From the IMG/VR virus record IMGVR_UViG_3300029951_000015: a stretch of DNA of 64,000 nucleotides. One strand, written 5' to 3'. This document shows, piece by piece, positions 1,278 to 51,641 of this stretch. The stretch is from a virus. The position numbers and the translations under genes are program-made. Below the pieces are notes generated by a model that was not told the origin of the DNA, made no database searches, and saw only the letters and a list, made by a program, of their open reading frames with translations. Each line of letters opens with the position of its first letter. The stretch's first letter is position 1.

Positions 1278-2276
1278 TCAGGTGTAAATATCGTTCAGCT
1301 TTCCTAACGATATTTGTTTTCCGGTTCGTGACACGAGGTCACGCAGCGTTATTTTCCCTGCTCTGTACAGCGCCGCGCGCCCCACTCCCAGGATCTCGTC
1401 CTGCTCAGTTTTGCTCTTACCATCCAACCACTTCTCGGCGCTAAGGCCGCTCGATGGTTTTCCGTCCATGCTGTTTTCTTCTAGACCCACTTCGGAATAG
1501 TGCCGCATGATCGGAACAGTTGCGCACCTGCATCCGAAGTGAAACGGCGCTCCGCCATTGAACGGCAGGGTCGTTGCGCCCATTGGCGTGCCGTCCACAT
1601 CATACGTTGACCCGTCGTAAGCCAGGCACTGCGCACACGTCCCTGAATCGAGCGTGGCCACTATCTCCAGCCCGAACACGACTGCGCTGTTGGCCTTGAG
1701 CACAGCGTTGCGCGCATCCATCGCGGTGCGTTGCGCGCCCGAGTGGACCAGCGACTCTGCATTATTCAGCGCCGCGGTGAACGGGCTTGTTGGCGCTAAC
1801 AACCTGGCCACCAGCTGCTCCACATCCTCGCCAGCGGTCATGCCGGCGCGAACCGTTGCAACCACCTTAGCCGAAGTGTCGGCCGCCTGAGCAGCCCACC
1901 AATCAGGCACAGCGTGGCCGCCGATCTCCGGGTCGGTCACCGTCAACCGCGGCGTGCGGACCAACTGAGACCCCATCTCTTCGTTGATGGTGGTGACCAC
2001 GAATTTGGCCTCGATCTGCGCCAGCTCCTGCGTCGCGTCTTTCGATGCTGCCGCCAGCTCGGCATACGTGGCGTCTATCTCCGCTCGTGCGGCGGCTATC
2101 ATCTTTGCGTACTCGGCTTTACTGGTTAAGTTCGTGGCCGTGATCAGTGCCACTACGAAAGCCGCCAGTCGGCGCAGCCGGTCTTTGGCGTCGTCCGACA
2201 GGCCGTCCGCGGTCTGGACCAGACGAACTCCGTGGTCAACAAACAGCGCGGCGAGCGCGTCTGATGCGTTAGTCAT
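1278..2276 (-). CDS. head morphogenesis protein (Mu gpF / SPP1 gp7-like)
   Basis: C-terminal CAQCLAYDG...PFHFGCRCATVP motif is typical of the Mu F-like family. Overlaps the portal stop by 8 nt. Confidence 0.7.
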   Translation of the reverse strand: MTNASDALAALFVDHGVRLVQTADGLSDDAKDRLRRLAAFVVALITATNLTSKAEYAKMIAAARAEIDATYAELAAASKDATQELAQIEAKFVVTTINEEMGSQLVRTPRLTVTDPEIGGHAVPDWWAAQAADTSAKVVATVRAGMTAGEDVEQLVARLLAPTSPFTAALNNAESLVHSGAQRTAMDARNAVLKANSAVVFGLEIVATLDSGTCAQCLAYDGSTYDVDGTPMGATTLPFNGGAPFHFGCRCATVPIMRHYSEVGLEENSMDGKPSSGLSAEKWLDGKSKTEQDEILGVGRAALYRAGKITLRDLVSRTGKQISLGKLNDIYT

Positions 2277-3777
2277 TCAGCTGCGCCGCTACCGAGCTTG
2301 GTGGCGTCCTTGGCGGGTTCACTTGCGGAGGTGGCATGAGTGCCGCTTGCGGTAGCGGCTGCGATTTGATCCGTTCCTGCTCCATTTCCCACGTCACGTT
2401 GGTGTCGTACACGTCGCGGCGCTGCATTGCTTCGTAGAACGACTGCTGGGACAGCATGCCTGTCGTCGTGATCTGGAACAGCAGCGCTTCCTGGACTGCG
2501 TCGTCGGCCGCCAGCAAGAAGTCCTTGTAGACGATCATCGTACCCGGCTTTCCTGCGACCGTTCCCCAACGGGCCATGACTCCAATGACCTGATTCAGCG
2601 TGTCCTCGAAAACGCCCGTCAGCGACTGCAGCTCCGAGCGCTGCTGGCTCGTATCGAGCGTGGCCTGCGTGGCCGTAGCCTGCCCTGGCTTCTTCACGAG
2701 CATCTCTGCACCGAGTAAGCGCATTTGCTCTTCAAGGTGATCTATCTGCGTCTGGCCAGATCCGACCGCCTTGCCTGAGTGCTCAACAAACTTGGCTTCC
2801 GCTCCTGACGGCAGCATTAACGCAGACTTCGCCGCTACCGTGAGGGGAGCCGTTCCGTCATCGTTTTTCTCAACCCCAGTAACTGTGAGGATCGGCACGG
2901 AAGCCGTATGGAGTACTGAATAAAGATCAGACGAAACTTGCCAGTGTTGGATGTTGATGTCGGCTATATCGATCAGCGGCGACTCGGCGGTCATAAACCC
3001 CGTGCGCCCCGTGTAGAACGTGATGATCGGAATCGCCTTCATCGAAGTTACGCCCGAATTCACCTGCTTCCAGACTTCGTTCTCGGTGTCGAACTGCCAG
3101 ATTGACCATTTCCCTGGTTCAAGCACTCGCACCTGTTCAATCGTCTTTACGGCAAACGGACCTACATTGACTTCGACGTGCTCCAAGATCCGCAACTGGG
3201 TCAGCGTCTCGACTCCGTTGCTCTTGTCCGAGCGCCACCCCAGAATCATTTCCGGATGGACATGAATCAAGTACGGCCGAGCGTTGATCGCTTTTTCCTG
3301 CGCGAGCGTCTGGATACCTTCCGTTGTCGGGTAGTCAGTCAATACGTGAGTCAGGCCATACCCGAGCGCCGTGGTGAAAAGCTCCTGCGCGAAAACGTGC
3401 ATACTGCGGCCGGTTAAGTCGATGTTCTCGAACCACTCGACAATCTCCGCCGGCATATCATTCGACCAGGACACAGGCCGCGTGAACGGCTTTCCGCCGA
3501 GGCCAGACACCGTATGAGCAAACGCATTGAACAGCACCGAGGTCTTTACCCGATACTGGTAATCGTCCGGCTCTTCCAGCCGCCATTTCGGCAAATACGT
3601 CACGCCCGCATTCCGCATGGCATTCGTGCCGCCGAGCAGCGTGGTGACCTTGTGCCAATTGGTCCGCATGTCCATGACGGCTTGCGACGGTGTACGCACG
3701 TCGTTGACATTGCTCTCCAGCTGCCCCTGAATCTCTGGAGTTACGCCTTCCGCGCTTGTGGGTCCGATCAACGGCAT
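2269..3777 (-). CDS. portal protein
   Basis: 502 aa, immediately after terL with a 1-nt TAATG overlap. Size and position between terminase and the MuF-like gene fit a portal. Confidence 0.65.
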   Translation of the reverse strand: MPLIGPTSAEGVTPEIQGQLESNVNDVRTPSQAVMDMRTNWHKVTTLLGGTNAMRNAGVTYLPKWRLEEPDDYQYRVKTSVLFNAFAHTVSGLGGKPFTRPVSWSNDMPAEIVEWFENIDLTGRSMHVFAQELFTTALGYGLTHVLTDYPTTEGIQTLAQEKAINARPYLIHVHPEMILGWRSDKSNGVETLTQLRILEHVEVNVGPFAVKTIEQVRVLEPGKWSIWQFDTENEVWKQVNSGVTSMKAIPIITFYTGRTGFMTAESPLIDIADINIQHWQVSSDLYSVLHTASVPILTVTGVEKNDDGTAPLTVAAKSALMLPSGAEAKFVEHSGKAVGSGQTQIDHLEEQMRLLGAEMLVKKPGQATATQATLDTSQQRSELQSLTGVFEDTLNQVIGVMARWGTVAGKPGTMIVYKDFLLAADDAVQEALLFQITTTGMLSQQSFYEAMQRRDVYDTNVTWEMEQERIKSQPLPQAALMPPPQVNPPRTPPSSVAAQLND

Positions 3778-5186
3778 TAGATATTCAGTCCTGTGACAAC
3801 CATTGTTTTGCGCTTGGTGCTGCAGCGATATCGCAGCACATCAGCGATGTGGTCCTCGGCTTCTGTGTCGAGGTCACCATCTTTTGCTTCGTTCCGGGGC
3901 AGGACTGGCAACGTGCGGATTGTATGCCCGCACGTAGCAAAAACATAGAGTCCTGGCAGTTCATTTCCTTTACCTTGCTGCAACATCTTTCGGAGTACTT
4001 CCCAACCATTCTTGCGACTGCCGGGCGACTTGTCCGATTTCGTCCAACGGATATAGTTCGGCGCACGCGCCATGTCGTCCGCAATGCTCGTGTTGTTGAT
4101 CACGTCGCTGATCGCGTTGTCGGCCGGCCCCGGATGCACGATGCGACGCATCTCCACGTCCCGCTGCCGAACACCGCGAGCAATCTCGGTGTTGATCATG
4201 CGGCAACCCTCGTTCGGCTTCCCGTTCCAGCCGTACCATTCCGAGATAACGAAGATGGAGCCGCGCGGGAAGTGACGCATTGTGCCGTCAGCCAACACAG
4301 CAGGTGTGCCGTCCGACTCCGCGAACCAAAGGACAGCGAATGGCTTGGACGTGCCCCAGTCAAAGCCGCGGTCGATACGCCAGCTCTGAGGTATGGTGAA
4401 TGGCTCCAGAACGTGCTTTGCCCGCTCCCACACGTCATCAAACATCCCACCTGCTACGATGTCCCAGTCGCCGTCGCGCATGGCGCGGATCAGCGATTCG
4501 TTGCCCAGCCCTTCCAAACGCTCTATGTAATCCGGATCGGTCTCAGCCAGCGTCGGGTTATCTGACAGTTTCGCGGGGATGTACTGGCGCAGCAGGCCGC
4601 CCTCCTTCTTTGTCTGCTTGCGGATTGTCATGGGCGAAGCCATGTCGACGAATGCCGCCTTTACCCAGTTGTGGCCCATGCCGCCTGGGTTCGAGCCACT
4701 AATCACGCGAGGGAACCTGCCCTTGTACTCGTCCGGCACGCGCAGCGCTCCGAGCCGCATCCGGCCGCGCAGGTAGCGATAGATCGACTCGGTAAAGTGA
4801 GTCAGCTCGTCAATCATGAGGACGTGTATTTCCGCACCTTGGTACTTGTATTTGTCTTTCTCGTACTGGCAGTGACATAGGAAAATCTTCGCGCCGTTCC
4901 AAAACTCGATGTAGTTCTTGCCGTAGTTGATCTTGCAGTGCTTGCTATCCACCAGCTCTTTGAGCAGCATCGGAAAGCCGGTCACGCCTTCCATGTGGTT
5001 CTTAGCCAAGTCGTCCGACAGCCTGCGGAAGATGTAGACCTGCAAGCCCGGAATGCCGAAGCACCAGATGATCGCGGCGCAGCGCATCAGGTGCGACTTT
5101 CCACCTCCGGCCGCTCCACCGTAAAGAATCTCCGTGGCGATGCTGAGAAACGCGTCTGTCTGCCGCTTGTGGAGATTTAAGTCCAA
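3777..5186 (-). CDS. terL: terminase large subunit
   Basis: TTG start with AAGGA upstream. Walker A GGAAGGGKSH, Walker B-like VLMIDELTH, and a C-terminal nuclease-like half. 469 aa. Confidence 0.85.
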   Translation of the reverse strand: MDLNLHKRQTDAFLSIATEILYGGAAGGGKSHLMRCAAIIWCFGIPGLQVYIFRRLSDDLAKNHMEGVTGFPMLLKELVDSKHCKINYGKNYIEFWNGAKIFLCHCQYEKDKYKYQGAEIHVLMIDELTHFTESIYRYLRGRMRLGALRVPDEYKGRFPRVISGSNPGGMGHNWVKAAFVDMASPMTIRKQTKKEGGLLRQYIPAKLSDNPTLAETDPDYIERLEGLGNESLIRAMRDGDWDIVAGGMFDDVWERAKHVLEPFTIPQSWRIDRGFDWGTSKPFAVLWFAESDGTPAVLADGTMRHFPRGSIFVISEWYGWNGKPNEGCRMINTEIARGVRQRDVEMRRIVHPGPADNAISDVINNTSIADDMARAPNYIRWTKSDKSPGSRKNGWEVLRKMLQQGKGNELPGLYVFATCGHTIRTLPVLPRNEAKDGDLDTEAEDHIADVLRYRCSTKRKTMVVTGLNI

Positions 5187-5214
5187 AGTTCCTTAAGTAT
5201 TTGTTAAATATGTT

Positions 5215-5272
5215 TAGGATTACTATGTTTAGCATTCCTGATGAATAGTAGTGCTACTTTTCAGTAATCCTA
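5215..5272. promoter_or_regulatory. 10-bp inverted repeat pair in the AT-rich terL leader
   Basis: TAGGATTACT (5215-5224) and its exact complement AGTAATCCTA (5263-5272) lie in the ~100-bp AT-rich gap upstream of terL. Confidence 0.3.
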
Positions 5273-5285
5273 TTTGTTCGTGATC

Positions 5286-5711
5286 CTAATTATTTTTATC
5301 GTGAATTTTTTGCTTGAGCAAATAACCTTCCAACGCCCAAATCTTTTCGCGCGCATTCTTGCGAGCGATGTCGCGGCCAATCTGCGGGTCGAAGTTCTCC
5401 GGACTCGCACAGGCGCTCTCCCCGGTCACGGTGAACCCGTTGCGGAGCACGATGACGCAGAAGGTGAGCAAGTGCAGTGGGCTTGCTGGACACGCGTGAC
5501 CGGCAAGCGTGTCCACGTCAGAATACCTCTGGTGCAATTCGAGTCTCGCCATTGCACCTTCAACACCGTGCTCAGCCGTGAAGAAATGCTCGCTGAAAAT
5601 CACCGCATCGATATGGGCCGGCGTAACGCGCGGCGCAATCTTCCCTGCTTGTACGATTGCGGCTTCGGTCAGCTGCTCACCGGTGCGCGACGTGGTGGCG
5701 ACCATGTTCAT
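5286..5711 (-). CDS. Gp49-like phage protein (N15 gp49 family-like)
   Basis: LTFCVIVLRNGFTVTGESACASPENFDPQIGRDIARKNAREKIWALEGY resembles the remembered hallmark of that family. ATGA overlap with the upstream gene. Confidence 0.45.
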   Translation of the reverse strand: MNMVATTSRTGEQLTEAAIVQAGKIAPRVTPAHIDAVIFSEHFFTAEHGVEGAMARLELHQRYSDVDTLAGHACPASPLHLLTFCVIVLRNGFTVTGESACASPENFDPQIGRDIARKNAREKIWALEGYLLKQKIHDKNN

Positions 5712-6124
5712 GCTTCGGCTCCGGCCGGCAGCTCACCGGTCTCGATGTACTTGGCGAGCTTGTTGACGCTGACCATGTAGTCCTGAAGGGCGCGGCCTGT
5801 CGGACTCAGGATGGACAGCGCTTGATTGCGAGCTAAGCGGCTAACTTCGGATTTTGTTTCTTGTTTTTCCGCCTGACCTTTTTGGAACGACATCCACTCT
5901 GCGTATGGGCCGCAGGGAGCGATAGCGTCGTCTTGCAGTAGCAATACGCTGGTCCGCTCGTGCTGGCGTCCGTTCTGGTTGAAGACGCTGAGATTGACCA
6001 TGTTGTCGCTCCACACGTACGTGACAATGGCTGCGAGCGGTTGGGTAGCGTCGTGACGAAACAAGTCAGCATCGCCCTCGTGCGGAGTGTAGAGGACGAC
6101 ACGGCCTGGGGTCGGTTTGATCAT
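5708..6124 (-). CDS. hypothetical protein
   Basis: 138-aa ORF co-oriented in the terS-terL block. Its stop overlaps the next start (ATGA). Confidence 0.5.
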   Translation of the reverse strand: MIKPTPGRVVLYTPHEGDADLFRHDATQPLAAIVTYVWSDNMVNLSVFNQNGRQHERTSVLLLQDDAIAPCGPYAEWMSFQKGQAEKQETKSEVSRLARNQALSILSPTGRALQDYMVSVNKLAKYIETGELPAGAEA

Positions 6125-6151
6125 TTGGGTTCCTGGGTGATTAAGTGTTTG

Positions 6152-6403
6152 TTAAGTCGGTATGGCCTGCATGTAGTTCATCCGAATCAGCAGCAATTTC
6201 TGCTGCGCGCACGCCAGTAGTTCGCTCGCATTCTTGGGATCTGCGCCACCAAAGCCGAAAATCGGTAGCGTCATTGCTTCGAGCACAACGACTGCGGCAG
6301 CGACCTCGCCATAGTTCTCTGCCTCGATATCGTCGGCCAGCTTGCGCAGCTGCCCCGGCACGTCTGTTACGGGCGGCTTGTCGCGGATAGCATGAACGGA
6401 CAT
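6152..6403 (-). CDS. hypothetical protein
   Basis: Track ORF 6152..6511 trimmed to ATG 6403, which overlaps the upstream stop by 1 nt (TGATG). Confidence 0.4.
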   Translation of the reverse strand: MSVHAIRDKPPVTDVPGQLRKLADDIEAENYGEVAAAVVVLEAMTLPIFGFGGADPKNASELLACAQQKLLLIRMNYMQAIPT

Positions 6404-6630
6404 CAAAAATCTCCTGGAGCGTTGACAGGCTTGGTTTTCGGCTGCAACTCGAACTCTTCGAACGCCGCGGCGAAGTTGCCGGTTTCCTTGTCGAGCAGCA
6501 TGAAGTCGCACTTGACGCGCGCCGGCTCGCCTGCCTCCAGGACGATCTCCAACTTGGAGACCAGGGGCGGCAAGCCGAGCGCTTTGATAAGTGTTTGTGA
6601 AATAGCTTCGGACGTGGCGAGATTACGCAC
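6403..6630 (-). CDS. hypothetical protein
   Basis: 75-aa ORF overlapping the terS stop by 8 nt, co-oriented. Confidence 0.45.
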   Translation of the reverse strand: MRNLATSEAISQTLIKALGLPPLVSKLEIVLEAGEPARVKCDFMLLDKETGNFAAAFEEFELQPKTKPVNAPGDF

Positions 6631-7348
6631 CTTGTGGGTCCTGCACGACCTGCTGCGGAGTAGCCGTCGCGCCGGCCAGCGTCACGTTCAGCGTCGGTCC
6701 GTTGCTGGCGATCTCGCCTGAATGCTCGACCTTATCCTTGAACATGCCGAGATGACGGCCCAACAGCTCCAACACCTTGACCTGGTCGTGGGTCTTCATC
6801 TCCAGGCCATCGCGCCCGGCCTTGACGCCGGCATAGAGCATTTTCGCGCCCTCCCCCATCTTGCGGGTGTCTTGCGCGTGGATCTCGCCCTTACCCTCGC
6901 CTTTGCACTCCGGGCACGCGGGATTGGGGTCTCGGTCCCTGCTGTAACCGACGCCGCCCGATTGCACCGGCTGCGGCCAGCTGCGCTTCGCCGCCTCTTC
7001 GCAGGCGCGCTCGTACTCGGCGTCAGTCCATTGGTAGCGATAATTGGTGCCGTAGCAGTACCGGCACGCGGTGCGGCGGTACTGTACGACCTCATTGACA
7101 TCAGTGGTGGCGATGGCCCACAGCCGGGCTACAACCTCGTCCTGCGTAGGCTCAAGACGCTTGGCGCGCTTCTCGACCAGGTGGTTGATGTAGCTCTGGA
7201 CATGCTCCAGAACAATCGTCGTGCAGGCGGCCGAAGACGGGTCCGCGTAGCCGGCGCGGCGCGCCGCGGCGGTCATGTTCAGGTCGAGGACGTATTCCTC
7301 GGCAAACTTCCGCTGCTTCCCCGTGAACAGTCTAAAATCGTAGCCCAC
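6623..7348 (-). CDS. terS: terminase small subunit with internal zinc-ribbon insertion
   Basis: N-terminus FTGKQRKFAEEYVLDLNMTAAARRAGYADPSSA and C-terminal KVLELLGRHLGMF match the Terminase_2-type small subunit. The middle carries CRYCYG...CPECKGEG. Confidence 0.75.
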   Translation of the reverse strand: MGYDFRLFTGKQRKFAEEYVLDLNMTAAARRAGYADPSSAACTTIVLEHVQSYINHLVEKRAKRLEPTQDEVVARLWAIATTDVNEVVQYRRTACRYCYGTNYRYQWTDAEYERACEEAAKRSWPQPVQSGGVGYSRDRDPNPACPECKGEGKGEIHAQDTRKMGEGAKMLYAGVKAGRDGLEMKTHDQVKVLELLGRHLGMFKDKVEHSGEIASNGPTLNVTLAGATATPQQVVQDPQGA

Positions 7349-7916: not shown

Positions 7917-8405
7917 ATGGAAATCTGGCGCGACGTTCCCGACTACATCGGCCTGTATCAAGTAAGCGACGATGGCAATGTGCGCAGTCTCAAGCGATTG
8001 AGTAATGCAGCGACCGCGGAAGGTATCAGGACTACTAAACACCTATTGAAGATTGGATCAAACAACAAAGGACGATTGCAGGTAACGCTATGCAAGCTAG
8101 GCGTCACCAGGCGGTTTCTGCTGCATCGTCTGGTGCTCGCAGCGTTTGCCGGGCCTTGTCCTGAGGGTTACGAGGGCTTATTCAAATCCGGCGATGTGAC
8201 CGACTGCAAAATCAGTAATTTGCATTGGGGAATTCGCACGGCTCGCGATGCTGGCGAAACGTCACCCCGCGCCAAGCTTGCCGAACAGGACGTTCGAGAC
8301 ATCCGCATATCGACGGACAGCGGCCGTGACCTTGCAGCGCGCTACGGCGTGTCGCAGGTGTCGATCCACCACATCAAAACCCGCGTCACGTGGAAACACA
8401 TTTAG
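7917..8405 (+). CDS. HNH homing endonuclease (NUMOD4 N-terminus)
   Basis: WRDVPDYIGLYQVSDDGNVRSL is a NUMOD4-type motif. RFLLHRLVLAAF is an HNH_3-like core. Locally lower GC. Confidence 0.8.
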   Translation: MEIWRDVPDYIGLYQVSDDGNVRSLKRLSNAATAEGIRTTKHLLKIGSNNKGRLQVTLCKLGVTRRFLLHRLVLAAFAGPCPEGYEGLFKSGDVTDCKISNLHWGIRTARDAGETSPRAKLAEQDVRDIRISTDSGRDLAARYGVSQVSIHHIKTRVTWKHI

Positions 8406-8949: not shown

Positions 8950-8996
8950 GGTTTATACTTACTTGCTAGTAAAACTATAAATACGGTATTATTAGT
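8949..8996 (+). promoter_or_regulatory. family promoter box, copy 2
   Basis: TTGCTA (8963-8968), 18 nt containing AAAACTATAAATACGG, then TATTAT (8987-8992) and TAG. Confidence 0.55.
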
Positions 8997-10466: not shown

Positions 10467-10520
10467 AGTCCCGCACACGTAAGCGCGCTATGATAAGCCC
10501 GTGCCTTTTAGGACATGGCA

Positions 10521-11264: not shown

Positions 11265-11305
11265 AAAGGTTGCTGTAAAACTATAAATACGGTATTGTTA
11301 GTGTA
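11265..11305 (+). promoter_or_regulatory. family promoter box, copy 4
   Basis: TTGCTG (11270-11275), TAAAACTATAAATACGG, TATTGT (11293-11298), TAG. Confidence 0.5.
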
Positions 11306-11555: not shown

Positions 11556-11619
11556 CAAAAGATACCCAAATCGGACCGCACCAACATTACATTAAGCTTA
11601 CAGCGTATTACGGCCGTTT

Positions 11620-12114
11620 AACTGATCGGTTTTCCTACCAGTACGATAAACACCCTATTTATAGGCCCTAACTGATCGGTTTTCCTACCAGTTGGTGCCT
11701 AATATTTGAGCACAAAACACCAACTGGTAGGTTTTCCTACCAGTTAGACACTCGATTTCTCCTAACTGATCGGTTTTCCTACCAGTTGGTGCTTAAATTT
11801 TAGGCAGAAAACACTAACTGATCGGTTTTCCTACCAGTTCGCAGCACTTTTCCCCTCCCTCCCAACTGATCGGTTTTCCTACCAGTTCGTTAATTCGGCC
11901 TCCTAACTGATCGGTTTTCCTACCAGTTAGCTAATTTTAGGGCACCAACTGATCGGTTTTCCTACCAGTTAGCTCGTTTCGCCCTCCTAACTGATCGGTT
12001 TTCCTACCAGTTAGCGTCATCTGCCTAAATTTTAAGCACCAACTGATCGGTTTTCCTACCAGTTCGCAGCGATATATACGCTATTTATGGTACTGATCGG
12101 TTTTCCTACCAGTT
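11620..12114 (+). repeat. array of 11 direct 24-bp repeats (iteron or centromere-like), helically phased
   Basis: AACTGATCGGTTTTCCTACCAGTT starts at 11620, 11670, 11722, 11764, 11816, 11864, 11905, 11947, 11989, 12041 and 12091. Spacings are 41-42, 48, 50 or 52 bp. Non-coding. Confidence 0.9.
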
Positions 12115-12326
12115 CAAATAGCCCGCAAAGCCTTACCCCATATAGAAAGTGAGCTTTTCTGTTACTTATTTAAAGGTACACTTTTATGGATACCCTGGAA
12201 AAATACACAAAAAGAGGTTTCTAAATCACCTATTTTTGTCTCTAATCGTCTTTTCTAGGACGGCCACCCCCTTTACGTACCTTTCCGACCGCTGCGAACT
12301 CCCCGGCAAGCTTACAAACTGTAAGA

Positions 12327-12357
12327 AACGAAAAGCGCTTTACAAAGCGTTTTCGTT
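12327..12357. promoter_or_regulatory. dispersed 31-bp palindrome, copy a
   Basis: AACGAAAAGCGCTTTACAAAGCGTTTTCGTT. A-tract, GC core, loop, GC core, T-tract. Confidence 0.6.
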
Positions 12358-12399
12358 AATTTACAGTCCAAACCTGCCCAATCTTCTTGCACCCAAAAT

Positions 12400-12948
12400 A
12401 TGCAGCCTTACCACTCAGACGGCATTGATTATGTGTTCACTTACACCGACCCCAATAGCCGCGATCATTTCATTGTCGCAGAGGTCGCAAACGCGGAAAT
12501 CGTCTTCGCTTTTGCCGAGATCGCTGCGGCTCTTGGCTATGCACATACCGGCCGCATGTCACCGCACGAGTCCGAGCATGCGCGTATCGTCAAGATGCAG
12601 CGCCGCGAGCGGCCGGTAAAGGCCGTCACCCTGGCAGGTGTTCTAACCTGCACACCGCGAAGTGCAACCGCTGTGCACTTCGCCGACTGGATGCGCGCTG
12701 TTGTATTCCCTGTGCTTGACCTGCCCGAGTTCCCGGAAAACGACAGCCATGTGGCCAAGTTCCAGCTGGCCTATATCAACACCCAGCTGGAACAGCTGCA
12801 GAACCGCGCAGAAGCCGCTCGCAGCGTCATAGCAGCCTACGCGCCGCACACTGACGCCGAAGCCGCCCAGGAGCCGCCAAGCGATCCGCAATCCCCCGAG
12901 CGCGTCAATGCTTTGCTTGATGTCGCTTTCGGCGTGAAACGTGCCTAG
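12400..12948 (+). CDS. Bro-N-like domain protein (antirepressor-like)
   Basis: IVFAFAEIAAALGYAHTG ... AVHFADWMRAVVFPVL resembles the Bro-N pattern (DVa.aLGY ... F..Wv...VlP). 182 aa. Confidence 0.45.
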   Translation: MQPYHSDGIDYVFTYTDPNSRDHFIVAEVANAEIVFAFAEIAAALGYAHTGRMSPHESEHARIVKMQRRERPVKAVTLAGVLTCTPRSATAVHFADWMRAVVFPVLDLPEFPENDSHVAKFQLAYINTQLEQLQNRAEAARSVIAAYAPHTDAEAAQEPPSDPQSPERVNALLDVAFGVKRA

Positions 12949-13234
12949 ACGCCGTCTAGTCCTCGAAACCGTGCCTGGCACGCGGATTCGCTACATCACC
13001 CACGGCGGTAAGCCGCTATTCGTCGCCTCAGACGTTGCACGCGAAGCCGGATACAAAACCCCGGCCGCAGCGACTAGCACCTGGACCGGCTCGCTAGTCC
13101 AGTTGACCGAGACTGGCAAACAGTGGCGCTTTGTTGACGCGGACCAGGCCGCCGTAGCGCTCTACCGTTCGAAAGCCCCTGCAGCACATGCTGTTTCCGC
13201 TACGTTACAACTTTTTAACGAAAACGCTCTGTAA
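12941..13234 (+). CDS. Bro-N-like domain protein (short)
   Basis: GTG start overlapping the upstream gene by 8 nt. IRYITHGGKPLFVASDVAREAGYKTP matches the Bro-N N-terminal pattern. Its stop lies inside palindrome copy b. Confidence 0.4.
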   Translation: MPRRRLVLETVPGTRIRYITHGGKPLFVASDVAREAGYKTPAAATSTWTGSLVQLTETGKQWRFVDADQAAVALYRSKAPAAHAVSATLQLFNENAL

Positions 13235-13797: not shown

Positions 13798-14060
13798 GCG
13801 TACTTCATCGAATTGCCTTAGCAGCCGCCGCGACCCGCAACCAAGTCGACTTTTTCGCACAGGCCCACCCTGCGAAATCCGGCGAACAGATCGTTAAAGA
13901 TGTCGTGGAACGCAAGATGCAGATTTATTTACGGAGTCTGCGCAATCACGAAGTTTCCCTTTTCGCACTCCAAGCTGACTTAACGGAAAAATCGGACAGC
14001 CGGGGCGTGACCGATAACGCAGCGATGGCAATTGCAATTGCCATCTACCAGTGCGAGTGA
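13794..14060 (+). CDS. hypothetical protein
   Basis: 88 aa, ATGA overlap with the upstream stop. Confidence 0.5.
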   Translation: MSVLHRIALAAAATRNQVDFFAQAHPAKSGEQIVKDVVERKMQIYLRSLRNHEVSLFALQADLTEKSDSRGVTDNAAMAIAIAIYQCE

Positions 14061-19943: not shown

Positions 19944-19971
19944 TTGTACAAAACTATAAAACTGGTATAGT
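19944..19971 (+). promoter_or_regulatory. family promoter box, copy 6
   Basis: TTGTAC-AAAACTATAAAACTGG-TATAGT-TAG. Confidence 0.5.
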
Positions 19972-27422: not shown

Positions 27423-27486
27423 CATATAGCGTCAGTGCTATATAGCGTGCTATATGCAATGCTACACATACACGGTGCTATATAGC
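27423..27486. repeat. cluster of GCTATATAGC palindromes upstream of parA
   Basis: Perfect 10-bp palindromes at 27437-27446 and 27477-27486. Degenerate copies at 27423-27430, 27449-27458 and 27461-27470. Confidence 0.6.
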
Positions 27487-27510
27487 ATGATGTATCAGCG
27501 TAGTGGAATG

Positions 27511-27545: not shown

Positions 27546-27609
27546 AAACGTTTGACTCGCCGAACTGACGCCGCTAATCTGGTAGATGGGTTAATCACAT
27601 GGAGCGGTG

Positions 27610-28260
27610 ATGCTATATACGTTTGGTGCAGAGAAGGGTGGAGTGGGTAAGTCCACGCTCGCGGAAGAGATGGCCGTGGAGCGTGCGAGTAGGGGATTTG
27701 AGACCCTACTGGTCGACCTAGACCCGCAGCGCACGACAACTGAGTGGGCCGCCGCGCGAGTCTATAACGAGGTGGTTCCACAGATCGTGTGTGTGTCGAA
27801 GGGTAAGAGCCTTACGAAAGAGCTTATCAAGATGCGCGAGGCGTTCGACACAGTGATCGTGGATATTGGCGGTAAAGACACACGGGACTTGCGCGAGGCT
27901 ATTGTCATTGCAGACAAGACCATCGTACCGATCAAGCCGTCGCCGGCAGACCTACGCACGTTCCCGGACTTCGCAGACTTTATCCGGCGCATCAACGCTG
28001 AGATTGAGACGCCCAAAGACGTGTGCGTGGTGCTCAACATGGTCAACGGGTCGAGCAACCAGTTCAAACGGTTCACGGACGGATTCGCGGAGTTCAGCGA
28101 CTGTATGAAGCTGCTGGATTCGCGTGTTTGCGAGCGCGTCGCGTATCAGAACGCATATGAGGCAGGGAAGGGCGTTCGTGAGCTGTCTCGTAGCGAGTAT
28201 GACCCCAAAGCCGCAGCTGAAATTGAGAGCCTTTATCTGGAGATTTTCGGAAATGAGTAA
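27610..28260 (+). CDS. parA: ParA-type partition ATPase (small, type Ib-like)
   Basis: Deviant Walker A GAEKGGVGKST and LLVDLDPQ. About 216 aa with no N-terminal HTH. GGAG lies 5 nt before ATG 27610. Confidence 0.8.
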   Translation: MLYTFGAEKGGVGKSTLAEEMAVERASRGFETLLVDLDPQRTTTEWAAARVYNEVVPQIVCVSKGKSLTKELIKMREAFDTVIVDIGGKDTRDLREAIVIADKTIVPIKPSPADLRTFPDFADFIRRINAEIETPKDVCVVLNMVNGSSNQFKRFTDGFAEFSDCMKLLDSRVCERVAYQNAYEAGKGVRELSRSEYDPKAAAEIESLYLEIFGNE

Positions 28261-28633
28261 GCCCATGACCGCGCGCCCCAGGGCCGCAACGCCGGAAGAG
28301 ACCTTGGCCAAAGTCCAGGGGATTATCAACGAGGTCCCGCCGGCAGCTGAGGCGCTGCCAGCCCCCGCACCTGTAGCAGCCACGCAACAGCAGGAAGCGC
28401 CGCCGGCCGCGGCTCTTGAAGCAGAAACCGCAGCACCGGCAACTGATTGGCGCGTGTTGCCGAAGAAGGTGCCGACGACGCAGTTCAACGTTCGCATTCG
28501 CTCTGATCTGCACGAAGTTTTGAACGAGCTGGCGACATACACGCCAGGCGAAAGCATGACTAAGATAGCTGCGCGTGGAATCGAGACGGAAATCCGGCGG
28601 ATGATGGCAGAACGGGGCATAGAGCTAAAGTGA
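28253..28633 (+). CDS. ribbon-helix-helix centromere-binding partner (ParG-like)
   Basis: ATG 28253 overlaps the parA stop. Pro/Ala-rich linker, then TTQFNVRIRSDLHEVLNELA...SMTKIAARGIETEIRRM, which fits a strand-helix-helix layout. Confidence 0.5.
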   Translation: MSKPMTARPRAATPEETLAKVQGIINEVPPAAEALPAPAPVAATQQQEAPPAAALEAETAAPATDWRVLPKKVPTTQFNVRIRSDLHEVLNELATYTPGESMTKIAARGIETEIRRMMAERGIELK

Positions 28634-29227: not shown

Positions 29228-30160
29228 ATGGAAGACGCACGGCAGTTTATGGACAGGGTACACGAGGTTGCTCAGCGGGCTTCGAAGTCGGTAAAAGCTA
29301 AGCCTGAGAAAGCCTTGAAACTAAAGGTGATCCAGCAGTTGATGCTCTGGTCTGACAAGGTGAGGGGGCTTCCTAACTCGCTGGCTCGATGCGCCTTGTT
29401 CACTGTGGGAAACCGCAATGAACCGCGCCGCATGTACGCACGAGAGGTCATAGCGTCGCTGCAGGGAATCGTGATCCAGTACACGGGTGAGGAGCTGCGG
29501 CAGGACGACGAGGACGTGTTCCTTCAGATCGTCCACTTGGGTCGGATGGTTGATGTCGGAGAGCCGTTCGTCGTCACGGGCCACATGGTTCTGACGGCGC
29601 TAGGGTGGGGCAGGTCGTCGGACAAGTACAAACGCCTCCTGGAATCCATCGGCAGACTCTCTGAGGGCACCATATGGGTCACGTACACCAACGAGGACGA
29701 AGTGGAGGCGAGCGTCGCTGCCGGCGCGGCAGCGCCTAAGAGAAAACGGAACGGTTACAACGGCCGCTTGATCGCTAAGTTGAAATGGCGAGAAGAGGGC
29801 GAAGAGTCCGAACAGGGGAAACACGTCAAATGGCAGTTCCGTCTTGACCCCGACATCATTAATCTGTTCGGCAAGGATGAATTCACGCTAGTTGACTGGG
29901 AGCAGCGCCTGTCGCTCACGTCGCTGGAGAAGTGGCTGCACAGTTTTTATTTCACACATCGCGAGCCTTACGCCTACAAGACATCGACGCTGTACACGCT
30001 CTGTGGCAGCAGCTGCGCCACACTGGCCAAGTTTCGCTACATGCTCAAGGGCGCACTCAGGAACCTGGAAGAGTCCGGCTTCTTCGAGTCGGCTTCGATA
30101 GACCCGCGGACGGATTTAGTGCAGGTTAAACGTAGGCGTCAGACCGCAATCGCAGCCTGA
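29228..30160 (+). CDS. trfA: plasmid replication initiator, TrfA-like
   Basis: VRGLPNSLARCALFTVGN, IVIQYTGEELRQDDEDVFLQIVHL and WLHSFYFTHREPYAYKTSTLYTLCGS match my memory of TrfA-family blocks. Immediately downstream of the iterons. Confidence 0.6.
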   Translation: MEDARQFMDRVHEVAQRASKSVKAKPEKALKLKVIQQLMLWSDKVRGLPNSLARCALFTVGNRNEPRRMYAREVIASLQGIVIQYTGEELRQDDEDVFLQIVHLGRMVDVGEPFVVTGHMVLTALGWGRSSDKYKRLLESIGRLSEGTIWVTYTNEDEVEASVAAGAAAPKRKRNGYNGRLIAKLKWREEGEESEQGKHVKWQFRLDPDIINLFGKDEFTLVDWEQRLSLTSLEKWLHSFYFTHREPYAYKTSTLYTLCGSSCATLAKFRYMLKGALRNLEESGFFESASIDPRTDLVQVKRRRQTAIAA

Positions 30161-30900: not shown

Positions 30901-30939
30901 TGTGTATTATTCGGATACACCCAACCCCAAGGTATCCGA

Positions 30940-31878
30940 ATGGCACAAATACTTTCGATGAAACAGCGCGCCGAAGGGCACGAACCTGGCGTCAAAAAAC
31001 ACTCAAAGTACTACAAGCTGAACCCAGCGCTGCTCCTGATCGAGGAGGGCTTCAATGTGCGAATCGATACGCCGGAGGCGCGCGAGAAAATCGGTAAGAT
31101 GAAGCTAGACATCTTAGCCGGTGCGAGCATGCCGGCAATCGACGTGCGTAACGATGTAGGCGGTTCGTTCGTCGTCGACGGCCATCGGCGCACTACCGCG
31201 TTCCAAGAGCTGATCGCTGAGGGTCACATAATTCTCGAAGTGGACGTGCGCGAGCTTAATGGCAACGCCACTGGTCGCAAGCTCGGCACCGCAGTACCCC
31301 TTTCGCCGGAAGCGCAAGCTTTGGCAGACCGCGTGTTCCATATGCTCGGCACCGCGGAAGGCTCGGAACCCATATCGACGCTGGAACAAGGCATCGGCTA
31401 CCTCAAGCTCGTTAAGATCGGTATATCGCGCGCAGTGATTGCGGCCGAAGAGCACAAGTCGCAGTCGCACGTCGATCAGGCGCTGACGCTCGCCATGTCC
31501 AGTCCAGACGTACATATGCTGGTAGCCCTAGGCAAGGTTCCGGGCCGGGTAGCAATCAAAGCGATCAAGGAGCATGGCAGCGACGCAGGACCGTTCCTGC
31601 AGTCGCTGCTCGATAGATCGAAGAAAGGTAAGCTGACGCAGAAGTCTATCTCTGGAACAGCCCTTCCCCGCAAACTGGCCGACCGCTGCGAAAACACCAT
31701 CCGAACGATTTTCACGCAGTCGTTCGAAATCGCAGCGCGCGTTGCGATTCAAGACGCAAAAGATGAGGATTTCGTGAACGTGCAGATGCCCAAGGCGCAG
31801 CTCCGCGCCCTGCTGGACGCGAACGAAGAAATCGCCAAGGTTCGCACGAAAGCCGGCAGCAGTGCAGCTCCCGCGTGA
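30940..31878 (+). CDS. parB: ParB/KorB-like (ParB N-terminal domain) protein
   Basis: Trimmed to ATG 30940, which has AAGG upstream; the track start at 30859 would read through the palindrome. IDVRNDVGGSFVVDGHRRTTAFQEL matches the ParB/Srx box. Confidence 0.65.
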   Translation: MAQILSMKQRAEGHEPGVKKHSKYYKLNPALLLIEEGFNVRIDTPEAREKIGKMKLDILAGASMPAIDVRNDVGGSFVVDGHRRTTAFQELIAEGHIILEVDVRELNGNATGRKLGTAVPLSPEAQALADRVFHMLGTAEGSEPISTLEQGIGYLKLVKIGISRAVIAAEEHKSQSHVDQALTLAMSSPDVHMLVALGKVPGRVAIKAIKEHGSDAGPFLQSLLDRSKKGKLTQKSISGTALPRKLADRCENTIRTIFTQSFEIAARVAIQDAKDEDFVNVQMPKAQLRALLDANEEIAKVRTKAGSSAAPA

Positions 31879-41290: not shown

Positions 41291-41905
41291 ATGAATCATT
41301 TCGCTGAAGTAGTACGTTTTAACGAAGCCGCACGCGGCGCGCTGCCGCACCGCCCAACTAAGCTGACACTCGACGAGACAAAGCTCTGCCTGCGTTTGAT
41401 CATCGAAGAGTCGTTCGAGACCGTCGAAGCGTGCCTCAGGCCCGAAAGCGCGGCGCTCGTCCTGATGACGACTTATAAGAACAAAATTCAGGCGGTCATT
41501 GCTCACCTGATCGACCACTCGGATGTAGAACAGGACAGCGCAGCCCTGTTGGACGGTCTGTGCGATACAATCGTGGTTACTATGGGGATGGCTGCGCTCG
41601 CCGGGTTGCCGCTGAATGAAGGCATGGGTGAGGTCAATGGTAGCAACTTGGCCAAGATCGACCCAGCCACAGGCCTGTGCATCAAGGATGCCGGCGGAAA
41701 GATCCAAAAACCGCCGGGTTGGAAGAAGCCGGACCTCGAATCGATCATCAGCTGGTCTCGGTTGCACGGCAACCGCGGCGACGTGCATTACGAGAAGATT
41801 AAGCCAGTCTCGGCTGCACTCGAAACCGCGTTAAGCAGCTGCGGTCAGTTCCCCGAGAACTTAGCAGCGCACAAGAAAGCTGGGGGTGTAGGTCAGCATG
41901 AGTAG
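41291..41905 (+). CDS. all-alpha NTP pyrophosphohydrolase-like protein (MazG / HisE-like)
   Basis: RLIIEESFETVEA (EExxE) and a later DGLCDTIVV fit the MazG-type metal-binding helices. 204 aa. Confidence 0.45.
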   Translation: MNHFAEVVRFNEAARGALPHRPTKLTLDETKLCLRLIIEESFETVEACLRPESAALVLMTTYKNKIQAVIAHLIDHSDVEQDSAALLDGLCDTIVVTMGMAALAGLPLNEGMGEVNGSNLAKIDPATGLCIKDAGGKIQKPPGWKKPDLESIISWSRLHGNRGDVHYEKIKPVSAALETALSSCGQFPENLAAHKKAGGVGQHE

Positions 41906-44803: not shown

Positions 44804-46207
44804 ATGTCTGCAGTAGCGAATATTTGCAAAAAAATAAACTTCCCACTTACGCCCCTCGGCTACCAGGTAGAGAACGTCGACGCGAGCATTGCGGAAAGCA
44901 TCGATCACCACGGCATGTATTGGGACATGGGCGCAGGCAAGACGTTCGGATCGACACTGCGAAACATGATCTACCGAGACGAGACTGGAGCGCAAATCAT
45001 CCAGGTCGTACCCCCCATTCTCATTAGGCAATGGGCGCGATGGCTGGACAGCTGCGGGATATCGAACACGGTCTACGTCGGAACCAAGAAGCAGCGATCA
45101 AAACTCACGCTAGGTCGCGACACGAGCTACCTGCTGATTCCGCTTGGCATCCTCAAGAACGACTACGATCGAATCTATGAGACCTACAGTGCGCGCAAGA
45201 TATCCGTGGCTGTCGACGAGGCTACCTGCATCAAAAACTACGACTCAGGCAATTTCAGGGCGATCCTGCAGCTGCAGTCCGGCCAAGCCATCATGCCCAT
45301 GACCGGTACTCCCCTCGCAACACCTAGTGACGCCTACGCATACATCAAGCTGATTAGCCCGGAAATTTACCGAAGCTTCTCCCAGTTCGAGAACATCCAC
45401 GTCGGGTCGAAGGATTACTTCGACACGGTCACAGAGTGGAAAAATCTTGACGTTTTGAAGAAAAACTTAGGACTCCGATCTTCTTTTATATCGACGCCAG
45501 AGGTTCATCCTGACATGCCGCGCGCGCGAATCTCGGATATCGAGTACGACTTGGCCAAGTCACATGAGAAGCTGTACCGGACGCTGGTAGACCAACAGCT
45601 GCTCGTGTTCGACAACGGCGGCGCTATCGATGCGTCAACGCCATCTAAACTCTACCATGCGGTCCAGCAGATCGTGCTGAACTACGGCTACTTCGCGCAG
45701 CAGAACGATCTAGTCCCCGCAGGCTTTGAAGTGCTTGATGAAATGGTCGCAGAGGTCGGCCGAGCAAAGCTGCTGGTGTTTGCGAACTACAAGATGTCCG
45801 TGCGCGCCATCGTGGAGCATTTGCGTAAGACGGGCGTAGCAGCTGTGCAAGTGAACGGCGAGATATCCGCCAAGGAGAAGTTCGACAACATCGAGATGTT
45901 CTTGAAAAACCCGCTGTGTCAGGTTCTCGTTGTCAACACGATATCCGCCGGCAAAGGTCTCGACGGCCTGCAGCATGTCTGCCACTACATGCTGTTTATG
46001 GAGGTGCCAACCGTAGCTCTGACATTTTGGCAGGCTGTCAAGCGTCTTGAGCGACCTGGACAGAAGTTTATCACGGACGTACGGATCGCCACGGCGCTCG
46101 GAACCGTACAGGTGCGGATGCGCAAAAACCTGATTCAGAACGATGGCCTCGTAAATTCCCTAGTTCCGTCTGCAAACGATCTCCGAAATGCGCTCTACGG
46201 GAAGTAG
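44804..46207 (+). CDS. SNF2-family helicase
   Basis: AGGAG upstream. MYWDMGAGKTF (motif I), VAVDEATCIKN (II), PMTGTPL (III), QAVKRLERPGQ (VI). Confidence 0.8.
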   Translation: MSAVANICKKINFPLTPLGYQVENVDASIAESIDHHGMYWDMGAGKTFGSTLRNMIYRDETGAQIIQVVPPILIRQWARWLDSCGISNTVYVGTKKQRSKLTLGRDTSYLLIPLGILKNDYDRIYETYSARKISVAVDEATCIKNYDSGNFRAILQLQSGQAIMPMTGTPLATPSDAYAYIKLISPEIYRSFSQFENIHVGSKDYFDTVTEWKNLDVLKKNLGLRSSFISTPEVHPDMPRARISDIEYDLAKSHEKLYRTLVDQQLLVFDNGGAIDASTPSKLYHAVQQIVLNYGYFAQQNDLVPAGFEVLDEMVAEVGRAKLLVFANYKMSVRAIVEHLRKTGVAAVQVNGEISAKEKFDNIEMFLKNPLCQVLVVNTISAGKGLDGLQHVCHYMLFMEVPTVALTFWQAVKRLERPGQKFITDVRIATALGTVQVRMRKNLIQNDGLVNSLVPSANDLRNALYGK

Positions 46208-50182: not shown

Positions 50183-50854
50183 ATGACACGAATTTTTGTG
50201 GCTGATACCGAAACGACGGGCCTGAAGTCGTCTGACCGCGTTGTCGAGTATGCCCACCTTGAATGCCGACTGCAGGCTAACCGACTGGTAGTCGTAAAGC
50301 AGTTTGAGACACTGACCAACCCAGGCATACCCATTCCCGAAGGGGCGATGAAAGTGCATGGCGTGAACGACGCGATGATCGCTAAGGCTCCGTATCTGCG
50401 CGATGTACTGCCCGCGGCCCTCGGCGTGGCCAAGAACGAATACGCGAAGATGTTTGGCCATAACTTCACAGCCTACGATATGCAGTTCCTTGACGGCCTG
50501 ATCCCGGACAGCTTCGATATTGGATGCACGCTGAAAGCAGCCCGCATGTTTATCGACGCACCCCGACACTCGCTCGACTTCTTGCGAGAGCATCTTGACC
50601 TACCTGAAGCACTGGCACACAGCGCGCTTGGCGACTGCTGCTCGACGTTTCATTTGATCAATCACATGCTCGCTGCAGGCACCCCTTGGGATGCACTGTC
50701 GAGCTGCATGCTGTCAAAGCCTACTGCGATCACGTTCGGCAAGCACAAAGGGACGCTGCTGCAGGATCTGCCGGACGACTACGTTCGCTGGTTGCTGGAG
50801 AAGTGCGACAACACGTCGTGGGAACTGCGCCGCGCGCTGAAGGAGTTGGCATGA
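50183..50854 (+). CDS. DnaQ-like 3'-5' exonuclease (DEDDh)
   Basis: IFVADTETTGL (Exo I), FGHNFTAYDMQFL (Exo II), HSALGDC (Exo III). Confidence 0.75.
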   Translation: MTRIFVADTETTGLKSSDRVVEYAHLECRLQANRLVVVKQFETLTNPGIPIPEGAMKVHGVNDAMIAKAPYLRDVLPAALGVAKNEYAKMFGHNFTAYDMQFLDGLIPDSFDIGCTLKAARMFIDAPRHSLDFLREHLDLPEALAHSALGDCCSTFHLINHMLAAGTPWDALSSCMLSKPTAITFGKHKGTLLQDLPDDYVRWLLEKCDNTSWELRRALKELA

Positions 50855-51339
50855 CTACCCGCTGCGGTGCCCCTGTCACGGGGGAGACCTACTTCACTTC
50901 GACATCTGGCGTCAAGAATCCCAACCCGAAAGACTCGATAGGCAGCTCGAAGATCCCGATGCACCTCTGGCCAGAAGCCGCGACTGTCCTAGGCTCCTTA
51001 GCGCTGCTCGACGGGGCGCTGAAGTACGGTCGCAGCAACTTCCGCGCCTCGCCGGTCCGCGCCTCTGTCTACTACGACGCAGCGAAGCGCCACCTCAACG
51101 CCTGGTTCGAAGGTAGGTCTTGCGACCCTGATTCCGGCCTACCCGATCTGGCGCATGCACTCGCCTGTTTGGCAATCCTCGTGGATGCAGAAGCGGCCTG
51201 CACGCTGATAGACGACCGCATGGTTTCTGGCGGCTACCTAACGTTGCTCGAAGGAATGACGCCGCACGTAAAACGACTGCAGGAACTGCACGCGGACAAG
51301 ACCCCGAAACACTACACCATCGCGGACCAGATGCCATGA
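50851..51339 (+). CDS. protein like the dATP/dGTP diphosphohydrolase N-terminal domain
   Basis: ATGA overlap with AAGGAG upstream. KIPMHLWPEAATVLGSLALLDGALKYGRSNFR and AKRHLNAWFEG...DPDSGLPDLAHALACLAILVD match the remembered family pattern. Confidence 0.55.
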   Translation: MTTRCGAPVTGETYFTSTSGVKNPNPKDSIGSSKIPMHLWPEAATVLGSLALLDGALKYGRSNFRASPVRASVYYDAAKRHLNAWFEGRSCDPDSGLPDLAHALACLAILVDAEAACTLIDDRMVSGGYLTLLEGMTPHVKRLQELHADKTPKHYTIADQMP

Positions 51340-51641
51340 GCCAATTCACTCCCCTCACCCCCGCTCAACGAGAGCGCATGACCAAGCTCGTCCAAGAACT
51401 GATGGAGTCTGGCGTAGCGGCCACCAAGATTCTGGAGCATGGCTTCGTGGCCACTGACGGCAACGGTGTGACCTATGACAACCGCGCCGACCTACAGCGT
51501 GAGCTTGGCGACATCCTTGCAGCTGCCCACCTGATGTTCGCTAACGGCGACATTGACGGAGACGCGGTGCTCGCGGCCGGCGAAGTAAAGAAGTTGACTG
51601 TCACTCGGTACATGCACTTCCAAGGGGAACCTCATGCGTAA
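51336..51641 (+). CDS. small MazG-like NTP pyrophosphohydrolase
   Basis: 101 aa, ATGA overlap. LVQELMESG ... LQRELGDILAAAHLM fits the MazG helix pair. Confidence 0.4.
   Translation: MSQFTPLTPAQRERMTKLVQELMESGVAATKILEHGFVATDGNGVTYDNRADLQRELGDILAAAHLMFANGDIDGDAVLAAGEVKKLTVTRYMHFQGEPHA

Follow-up and report, generated by a model that had tools for sequence, protein, structure and literature searches.

The DNA analysed here is a 64,000-nucleotide stretch of the IMG/VR record IMGVR_UViG_3300029951_000015 (hereafter the window), which forms part of a siphophage genome of ~87.7 kb. Within it, an array of 11 direct repeats of a 24-bp unit is set between a gene for an HU/IHF-like protein, which points away from the array, and a gene for a protein with a divergent Bro-N-fold domain (open reading frame ORF182). 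A small open reading frame (ORF63) separates the array from the HU/IHF-like gene, and an AT-rich tract followed by a GC-rich block separates it from ORF182 (Table 1). A first-pass annotation, made from the sequence alone, had described the array as non-coding, with a divergent HU/IHF-like gene to its left and an AT-rich tract to its right. Each part of this description was borne out: gene calls made independently on identical metagenome contigs leave 11556–12399 without genes, the HU/IHF-like gene has a Pfam match, and AT content reaches 66–72% at ~12136–12256, compared with 43.9% for the window.

A helically phased array of palindromic repeats

The 24-mer AACTGATCGGTTTTCCTACCAGTT (A-site) occurs in 11 plus-strand copies, eight of them exact and three with one or two mismatches, and was matched in 0 of 100 dinucleotide-preserving shuffles. 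A repeat search returned start-to-start spacings of 50, 52, 42, 52, 48, 41, 42, 42, 52 and 50 bp, so that both the copy number and the near-helical phasing given by the first-pass annotation hold. Symmetry within the unit goes further than the terminal AACTG/CAGTT inverted repeat it had described, the whole unit being a 10-4-10 imperfect palindrome (AACTGaTcGG-TTTT-CCtAcCAGTT); in copy 3 (11722) the two arms are perfectly complementary, again as described. Across ~84 kb of the ~87.7-kb genome, including ~20 kb fetched from beyond the window, the unit was found nowhere else and at no other promoter, and half-sites beyond the array occurred at chance level only. An Rfam search gave no match.

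The spacers (17–28 bp) differ from one another yet fall into related families, and two-unit blocks have been duplicated within the array with periods of 84 and 94 bp. A second palindrome with an AT centre, GCYTAAWWTTTARGC (B-site), lies in three of the longer spacers and essentially nowhere else, and a further motif, TTCGCAGC, appears in two places; the shared spacer sub-motifs reported earlier are therefore real. Sites of the B type are also present in the spacers of one related locus (L024), in the form TGCYTAAAAAATAGGCA. The complement of TTCGCAGC, GCTGCGAA, lies at 12291–12298, and GCTGCG(AA) recurs 3' of the arrays in relatives.

AA/TT dinucleotides in the array show a periodicity peak at 10.6 bp, with a power of 3.96 against a background mean of 0.29 and maximum of 1.01 (250 background segments). 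Curvature of this intrinsic kind classically arises from phased A-tracts, and the periodicity implies that the array DNA would be intrinsically curved. Control by Dam/SeqA through the GATC in each unit was considered and rejected: the window shows no depletion of GATC (345 found, 241 expected), the units of relatives do not keep it, and its presence in the window units is incidental.

Position and geometry are conserved in related phages while unit sequences turn over

Relatives were gathered through homologues of the HU-like protein and of ORF182. In eight related loci (L014, L015, L017 (partial), L024/L025, L032, L033, L034 and L035) an array lies in the equivalent non-coding gap, which is the conserved position that the first-pass annotation had proposed to look for; L018 is also related, but its contig stops short of the array position. 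The layout in relatives runs from the divergent HU gene through small open reading frames to a non-coding gap of 0.9–1.4 kb with the array, then in some to an AntA-like gene, and on to a gene for a basic protein of ~176–213 aa (ORF-K, absent from the window) and the ORF182 homologue. Across the group the shared order is HU-like gene, small open reading frames, array, AT-rich tract, GC-rich block and Bro-N-fold gene. HU homologues adjoin the array in those relatives that have the gene and are 52–63% identical to the window protein; ORF182 homologues follow the arrays of L014, L015 and L024 (28–36% identity) and those of L032–L035 (P0008 and P0010–P0012, 29–37% identity).

The units themselves differ from phage to phage, while their position, phasing and design are kept. 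In place of the 11 window copies of AACTGATCGGTTTTCCTACCAGTT, L014 and L035 have eight and seven copies of ACTCCTTTTTCCGAACGAGG, L032 five of TTCGCTTTTCGGAACGAGGGA, L015 seven of CTGCTTATGTTTTCCTAAATTAG, L033 eight of AAATGTGGTTTTACCACCT, L034 seven to eight of TAGCCTCCAAAAACGGAGGCTA and L024 nine of TTAGCCTACATTGATGTAGGCTAA, and two copies of GTAGCCTCAAAATTTGTAGGCTAC are seen in the partial L017 locus. Full arrays of relatives thus hold 5–9 units. Their units measure 19–24 bp, show partial dyad symmetry about a central A/T tract (lacking in L024), and often stand in both orientations and in two clusters.

Distances between neighbouring units fall in multiples of 10.4 bp, clustering at 31, 41–43, 52, 62–63 and 73 bp. 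Over 49 such distances, whose independence is limited by the growth of arrays through internal duplication, the Rayleigh R was 0.60, with a mean phase of ~0 only near a 10.4-bp period, and it remained at 0.58 when the window was left out (n = 39). AA/TT periodicity in the relatives peaks at 10.6–10.8 bp and exceeds the background of the same locus in six of seven.

The sequence following the array is conserved as well. An AT-rich tract lies 3' of the array in every relative examined downstream (L032–L035 being judged by inspection), with peaks of 70–87% AT in L014, L015 and L024. It contains a block, ..TAAAGGAAAC, common to the relatives examined downstream, of which the window version is GTTACTTATTTAAAGGTACAC. 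GC-rich blocks (GGCCACCCCC, CCTTTCCGA..GCTGCGAA) come after the AT-rich tract in most relatives, and that of the window (GGCCACCCCCTTT..CCTTTCCGACCGCTGCGAAC) is partly common to L014, L015 and L024. The AT-rich tracts of L032 and L033 also contain TAAGTCATTGATT, which in reverse complement matches the IHF consensus WATCAANNNNTTR; one-mismatch versions are present in L014, L035 and L024, with no clear equivalent in the window.

A probable nucleoprotein assembly site and candidate replication origin

We are highly confident that the array is a site of nucleoprotein assembly, where a sequence-specific protein, evolving together with its sites, binds DNA that is prone to wrapping. This rests on the many near-identical sites, on a same-face phasing that survives sequence turnover and on the adjacent gene for an architectural protein; turnover of the unit at a kept position is the pattern to be expected if the site co-evolves with its specificity protein. 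The proposal of an independent nucleoprotein assembly site, put forward in the first-pass annotation, is thereby strongly supported by the eight relatives. Of the three functions proposed there, the best fit is with a lytic origin flanked by an unwinding element; a sopC-like centromere is weakened, and an incA-like copy-control locus fails.

Our preferred, still tentative, reading of the function is that of an iteron-type replication origin distinct from the TrfA oriV. Iterons, an AT-rich tract and a GC-rich block make up canonical origin anatomy, and this order is conserved between the window and its relatives: multiple repeated putative initiator sites (11 units in the window, 5–9 in relatives) adjoin an AT-rich element in the window and in the relatives examined. 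Further reasons are the lambda-like form of the units, a cumulative G-C minimum of the window at 13880 (~1.8 kb from the array, and unchanged with the array masked), the phage's own replication proteins and an apparent independence from TrfA. The latter is suggested by the recovery of TrfA-bearing contigs through invariant TrfA motifs: the sole IMG/VR relative with an array (90.8 kb) is not among the 15 contigs obtained, which points to an array that may be independent of the TrfA module.

Under this reading, the repeats would act as iterons, that is, high-affinity sites for a sequence-specific and probably dimeric DNA-binding protein. Placement at whole helical turns would bring the bound proteins and the central A-tracts onto one side of the DNA, which would therefore be intrinsically curved and able to wrap, with the bound protein, into a single large complex. 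Help would probably come from the phage HU/IHF-like protein, possibly at the AT-centred B-sites of the longer spacers. Assembly of the complex could then destabilise the adjoining 120-bp AT-rich tract, bounded by the GC-rich block, and the phage primase, PolA and helicases would be loaded at the opened tract.

Several observations weigh against an origin. No Rep, O or DnaA-like initiator was detected with Pfam or PHROG among the genes flanking the array, the neighbours being Bro-N-fold genes and, in relatives, ORF-K, and the TrfA gene lies 17 kb away with unrelated iterons of its own. Inspection by eye revealed no clear DnaA boxes, only a DnaA-box-like 7/9 match in the window. The window already has a complete TrfA oriV, and the spacings of 31–52 bp exceed the 20–24 bp of classical origins. 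Conserved blocks inside the AT-rich tract mean that it may be a promoter/operator region rather than an unwinding element. The GC skew comes from a partial genome and is weak evidence, only suggestive. The 13 metagenome loci of the window phage are 100% identical save for one single-nucleotide polymorphism (in L002), and these copies therefore carry no population-level information. Finally, a comparison of unit similarity with protein identity singled out no clear binder: the Bro-N N-domain gave a Spearman coefficient of 0.29 (not significant), ORF-K one of 0.49 (nominal p 0.025) and HU one of −0.03.

Comparison with characterised systems places the array within a known kind of element, an iteron-like, phased binding-site array. 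A close formal parallel in the units is with lambda ori, whose checked sequence consists of ATCCCTCAAAACGAGGGA and three variants, imperfect palindromes centred on AAAA(C), with an AT-rich region after them. The L034 unit TAGCCTCCAAAAACGGAGGCTA and the window unit read on the opposite strand, AACTGGTAGGAAAACCGATCAGTT, are A-tract-centred imperfect palindromes of the same type, the array is directly followed by its AT-rich tract, and the phased A-tracts imply a bend in the DNA that would let it wrap around dimers of an initiator. Unlike lambda ori, which has four units at 20–24 bp inside the initiator gene, the present arrays have 7–11 units at 31–52 bp (3–5 turns) in an intergenic position with no O-like initiator; in relatives the units stand in both orientations and in two clusters, and some spacers contain B-sites. 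The oriV regions of RK2 (TrfA) and RSF1010 consist of iterons, an AT-rich tract and then a GC-rich block, the order also seen at the array. In contrast to TrfA iterons, which are asymmetric, the array units are dyad-symmetric, sequence-unrelated and more widely spaced, and have no Rep gene in cis.

A further parallel is offered by baculovirus hrs. These consist of imperfect palindromes in arrays to which a dimeric viral protein binds, act as enhancers and putative origins, and occur in viruses with many Bro-N (BRO) proteins. Unlike the array, hrs belong to viruses of eukaryotic hosts, are present in several dispersed copies and are bound by IE-1 rather than BRO, and there is no sequence relationship.

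What is new, as judged by sequence comparison, is the lack of any sequence relationship to a described site, together with the composite A-/B-site design at 3–5-turn spacing and the conserved partners, an HU-like and a Bro-N-fold protein, which are not known initiators or centromere-binding proteins. The exact or degenerate unit had no match in IMG/VR, GTDB genomes or Joint Genome Institute (JGI) metagenomes, and a literature search returned nothing relevant. Near-identity DNA searches with 10–14 kb against phages and plasmids gave no match, nor was a close relative of the window phage found among GenBank phages, PLSDB, IMG/VR or GTDB genomes. Searched singly against IMG/VR loci, the HU-like protein and ORF182 gave no match, and tblastn of the HU-like protein and the open reading frame at 10515 against GenBank phages gave no useful one. 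The array represents a cis-acting module conserved across a group of ~88–95-kb siphophages from environmental metagenomes that had not been described before and is likewise without close relatives among GenBank phages, PLSDB plasmids or GTDB genomes, and its family forms a natural series of sites in which sequence has changed and geometry has been kept, useful for studying selection on spacing and curvature. Should the array prove to be an origin, this phage would possess two that are unrelated, the TrfA oriV of plasmid type and an iteron origin of phage type, an arrangement that would amount to the phage-plasmid logic of P1 built from different parts.

Alternative functions of the array

A partition centromere of the sopC/parS type, at which the ParB-like or another binder would coat the phased sites and segregate a plasmid prophage, is a natural alternative in a genome that encodes TrfA with its iterons, ParA and an orphan ParB-like protein without an adjacent parS. 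F sopC, when checked, comprises 10.7 repeats of 43 bp with the core TGGGACCACGGTCCCA, starting ~90 bp after sopB, and the array resembles it in having ~10–11 tandem units at ~4–5 helical turns with an inverted repeat in each. The two differ in the unit itself: in sopC the whole unit is conserved (94% matches) at a fixed period, whereas the array keeps only its 24-bp core at a variable period of 41–52 bp, and sopC has neither the AT-rich tract nor the GC-rich block, for whose conservation a centromere offers no role. There is no parA–parB adjacency either, the distance from the array being 18.8 kb for the ParB-like gene and 15.5 kb for parA, and the parA/RHH (ribbon-helix-helix) pair, preceded by GCTATATAGC palindromes of its own, looks like a type Ib module complete in itself. 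ParB-like proteins of the phrog_1033 family occur in many phage records, some annotated as transcriptional regulators, one relative is without detectable TrfA, and the units of relatives lie in both orientations and two clusters. We consequently regard a centromere as unlikely. An incA-like copy-control array of the P1 type was rejected on sequence: the unit and the TrfA iterons (..ATCAGYCWAAAGGCGAA) have nothing in common, and the unit is absent from the oriV region. The lack of relationship between the array and the iterons at 28.7–29.2 kb had been recognised in the first-pass annotation and stands on sequence comparison.

A regulatory array seems to us similarly improbable. It would serve as a multi-operator or enhancer-like platform, or as a titration sink, for the operon of Bro-N/antirepressor-like genes or for read-through from the motif at 11278, wrapping or looping with HU. 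Its position agrees with this, between an early promoter-like motif and the conserved Bro-N and AntA-type genes, as do the promoter/operator-like conserved blocks in the AT-rich tract, the sigma-70-like promoter match and dispersed palindrome directly upstream of ORF182, and a covarying structured leader before the next gene in relatives. Yet 7–11 near-identical sites over 400–500 bp far exceed the phage operators known to us, and we know of no parallel with as many sites over ~0.5 kb; as read across relatives, the AT-rich tract shows no conserved −10/−35 element, and the unit is at no other promoter of the genome. Packaging is a still weaker candidate, and we consider it very unlikely that the array is a pac or cosB-like site where the small terminase binds the repeats and the HU/IHF-like protein bends the DNA, as IHF does at lambda cosB. 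An HU/IHF-like gene does adjoin the array, the order of array, HU, ~10 small genes, HNH and TerS is constant in the window, L015 and L018, and contigs of 87.6–87.8 kb with differing starts fit a circular or circularly permuted genome. Pac and cos sites, however, usually lie inside or beside terS, which here (6623–7348) is 4.3 kb away with ~10 early-type genes between, and 11 sites with an AT-rich tract are unlike known pac anatomy. That the array is a functionless tandem duplication, a CRISPR-like array or the remnant of a mobile element is scarcely credible: two-unit duplications inside it and assemblies that break within it are what such a repeat might show, but position, phasing and architecture are kept across eight relatives despite units of unrelated sequence. 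The short, mutually related spacers and the occurrence of both unit orientations in relatives, together with the lack of an Rfam match, led us to reject a CRISPR or RNA array.

Candidate binding proteins

The first-pass annotation held that the binding protein could not be identified from sequence, and this still applies, no protein having been tied to the specificity of the unit. HU is excluded as the reader of the A-sites because the HU proteins of L014 and L033 are 91% identical while their units are unrelated; it may instead be a bending cofactor, perhaps at the B-sites. ORF-K was rejected as a universal binder on account of its absence from the window, and it is only 42–43% identical between L014 and L035, though these share the unit ACTCCTTTTTCCGAACGAGG.

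ORF182, the sole conserved protein-coding partner downstream of the array, is the leading candidate, possibly with ORF97, a second Bro-N-like product; both are candidates only. It has no Pfam match at E ≤ 0.01, no match among PDB sequences and no significant PDB fold match. Its predicted model (mean predicted local distance difference test score, pLDDT, 78.6) has an N-terminal beta/alpha domain and a 33-residue helix (residues 115–147) that could form a dimerisation element, and its best matches among the predicted viral structures of BFVD are consistently Bro-N/BRO proteins (E 7e-6 to 1e-3, probability 1.00). This tiny family accounts for 22 clusters in a set of 1.84 billion representatives. 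A more specific version of the origin reading, in which a dimeric Bro-N protein of the ORF182 family and the phage HU/IHF-like protein occupy the phased A- and B-sites and form a curved organising centre, a new class of phage origin, is in our view doubtful. If true, it would provide the first defined DNA site and an initiator role for the widespread and functionally obscure Bro-N domain; in any case, the array offers a testable DNA target for Bro-N-fold proteins.

Genomic context

Table 1 Features of the array locus and of the plasmid-like and packaging modules (positions in the window)
Feature	Position	Strand	Basis or remark
Packaging and head genes (MuF, portal, TerL, TerS)	1278–7348	-	
HU/IHF-like gene (Bac_DNA_binding), 89 aa	10899–11168	-	Pfam PF00216, E 2e-8; points away from array
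Promoter-like motif AAACTATAAATACGG	11278–11292	+	Faces ORF63 and array; one of six window copies, all intergenic
ORF63, 63 aa	11364–11555	+	Between promoter-like motif and array; called on identical metagenome contigs
A-site array, 11 direct 24-bp units, AACTGATCGG-TTTT-CCTACCAGTT	11620–12114	+	Repeat and motif search
A-site starts	11620, 11670, 11722, 11764, 11816, 11864, 11905, 11947, 11989, 12041, 12091		
Spacer B-site GCCTAATATTTGAGC	11697–11711		Motif search; palindrome with AT-rich centre
Spacer B-site GCTTAAATTTTAGGC	11791–11805		Motif search
Spacer B-site GCCTAAATTTTAAGC	12023–12037		Motif search; inverted relative to 11791 copy (inverted-repeat pair)
Spacer motif TTCGCAGC	11838–11845, 12063–12070	+	Read from sequence
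AT-rich tract, candidate unwinding element	12136–12256		AT content over ~120 bp
Conserved block GTTACTTATTTAAAGGTACAC	12161–12181		Inside AT-rich tract
GC-rich conserved block GGCCACCCCCTTT..CCTTTCCGACCGCTGCGAAC	12262–12299	+	Partly common to three relatives
Near-palindrome AAAGCGCTTTACAAAGCGTTTTCG	12332–12355		One of eight dispersed copies; overlaps sigma-70-like promoter match 5' of ORF182
ORF182, divergent Bro-N-fold domain and long helix	12400–12948	+	Conserved gene 3' of array; candidate array binder
ORF97, second Bro-N-like open reading frame	12941–13234	+	Pfam Bro-N E 5e-4 (below curated cut-off); PHROG anti-repressor E 6e-5
ParA, 217 aa	27607–28260		
125-aa protein, RHH-like C-terminus	Module 27607–28633		parA partner; read from sequence; no PHROG match
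TrfA-type iterons (oriV), 17 bp at 22–24 bp spacing	28.68–29.16 kb		
TrfA	29228–30160		
ParB-like protein	30937–31878		phrog_1033, E 1.6e-30; no match among PDB sequences

Contigs of the window phage measure 87.6–87.8 kb and have differing start points in different assemblies, which indicates a genome that is probably circular or circularly permuted. The window contains the packaging and head genes, the tail genes lying beyond it, and a rightward block from 7917 with ~60 small early open reading frames, followed by the plasmid-like module. Its TerL is ~52% identical to that of Rosemountvirus and its TrfA ~49% identical to Burkholderia plasmid TrfA proteins. The replication set comprises a primase (46207–49086), PolA (51634–54927), SNF2 and PIF1-like helicases, an exonuclease, a ligase, SbcCD and ThyA. 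Upstream of parA, the GCTATATAGC palindromes (27424–27495) are likely to be the operator and centromere of a type Ib-like parA/RHH module.

ORF63 has no family match among Pfam or PHROG profiles, and in L015 no small open reading frame is called at its position. The promoter-like motif preceding it is found at the equivalent place, beside the HU gene, in L014, L017 and L018. In the window, copies of AAACTATAAATACGG(TATTATTAGT) stand ahead of gene blocks at 7723 (minus strand) and at 8972, 10437, 11278, 13256 and 27519 (plus strand), with a weaker one at 19951, and from their placement they probably represent a class of phage early promoters. A 24-bp near-palindrome, AAAGCGCTYTACAAAGCGTTTTCG, has eight intergenic copies (7747, 12332, 13219, 19915, 30875, 33137, 49087 and 55674), where none is expected by chance; three are directly upstream of the promoter-like motif. 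These dispersed copies could be operators of a global regulator or else weak terminators and, together with the orphan ParB-like protein, recall the dispersed KorB sites of RK2.

Two further elements accompany the array in relatives. Directly 5' of ORF-K lies a structured element of ~140 nt, absent from the window as is ORF-K itself (L014, 4435–4572, minus strand; L035, 3625–3762; L033, 4640–4782; L034, 610–751; L015, 1851–1978, minus strand). Compensatory changes affect 16 of its 41 predicted pairs and are accompanied by a covarying long-range helix, TTGGCNG/CNGCCAA; possible roles for the element are those of a 5' leader RNA or of a hairpin for single-strand initiation. Besides HU, L014 (668–1036, minus strand), L032 (7760–8278) and L033 (8124–8492) encode an H-NS-like protein (PF00816) a few kb from the array; no homologue was detectable in the window (tblastn E 0.32).

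The 15 IMG/VR viral contigs with TrfA homologues (L026–L031 and L039–L053; 16–116 kb) show 27–47% identity in this protein. Six of them were compared with the window; four also match its ParA and three its ligase. Replicons of the TrfA type seem, from these matches, to be widespread in environmental phage-like elements.

A NUMOD4/HNH endonuclease gene (7917–8405) diverges from terS over an intergenic region of 570 bp, which is itself a possible packaging site, and L015 has a NUMOD4-domain gene at the equivalent position. Enzymes of the nucleotide pool are encoded at 41291–41905, 50686–51339, 58679–59233 and 62699–63574, a set made up of a MazG-like pyrophosphohydrolase, a dATP/dGTP diphosphohydrolase N-domain (PF18909), a YfbR-like protein and thymidylate synthase; as a group, they hint at a possible modified base in the phage DNA.

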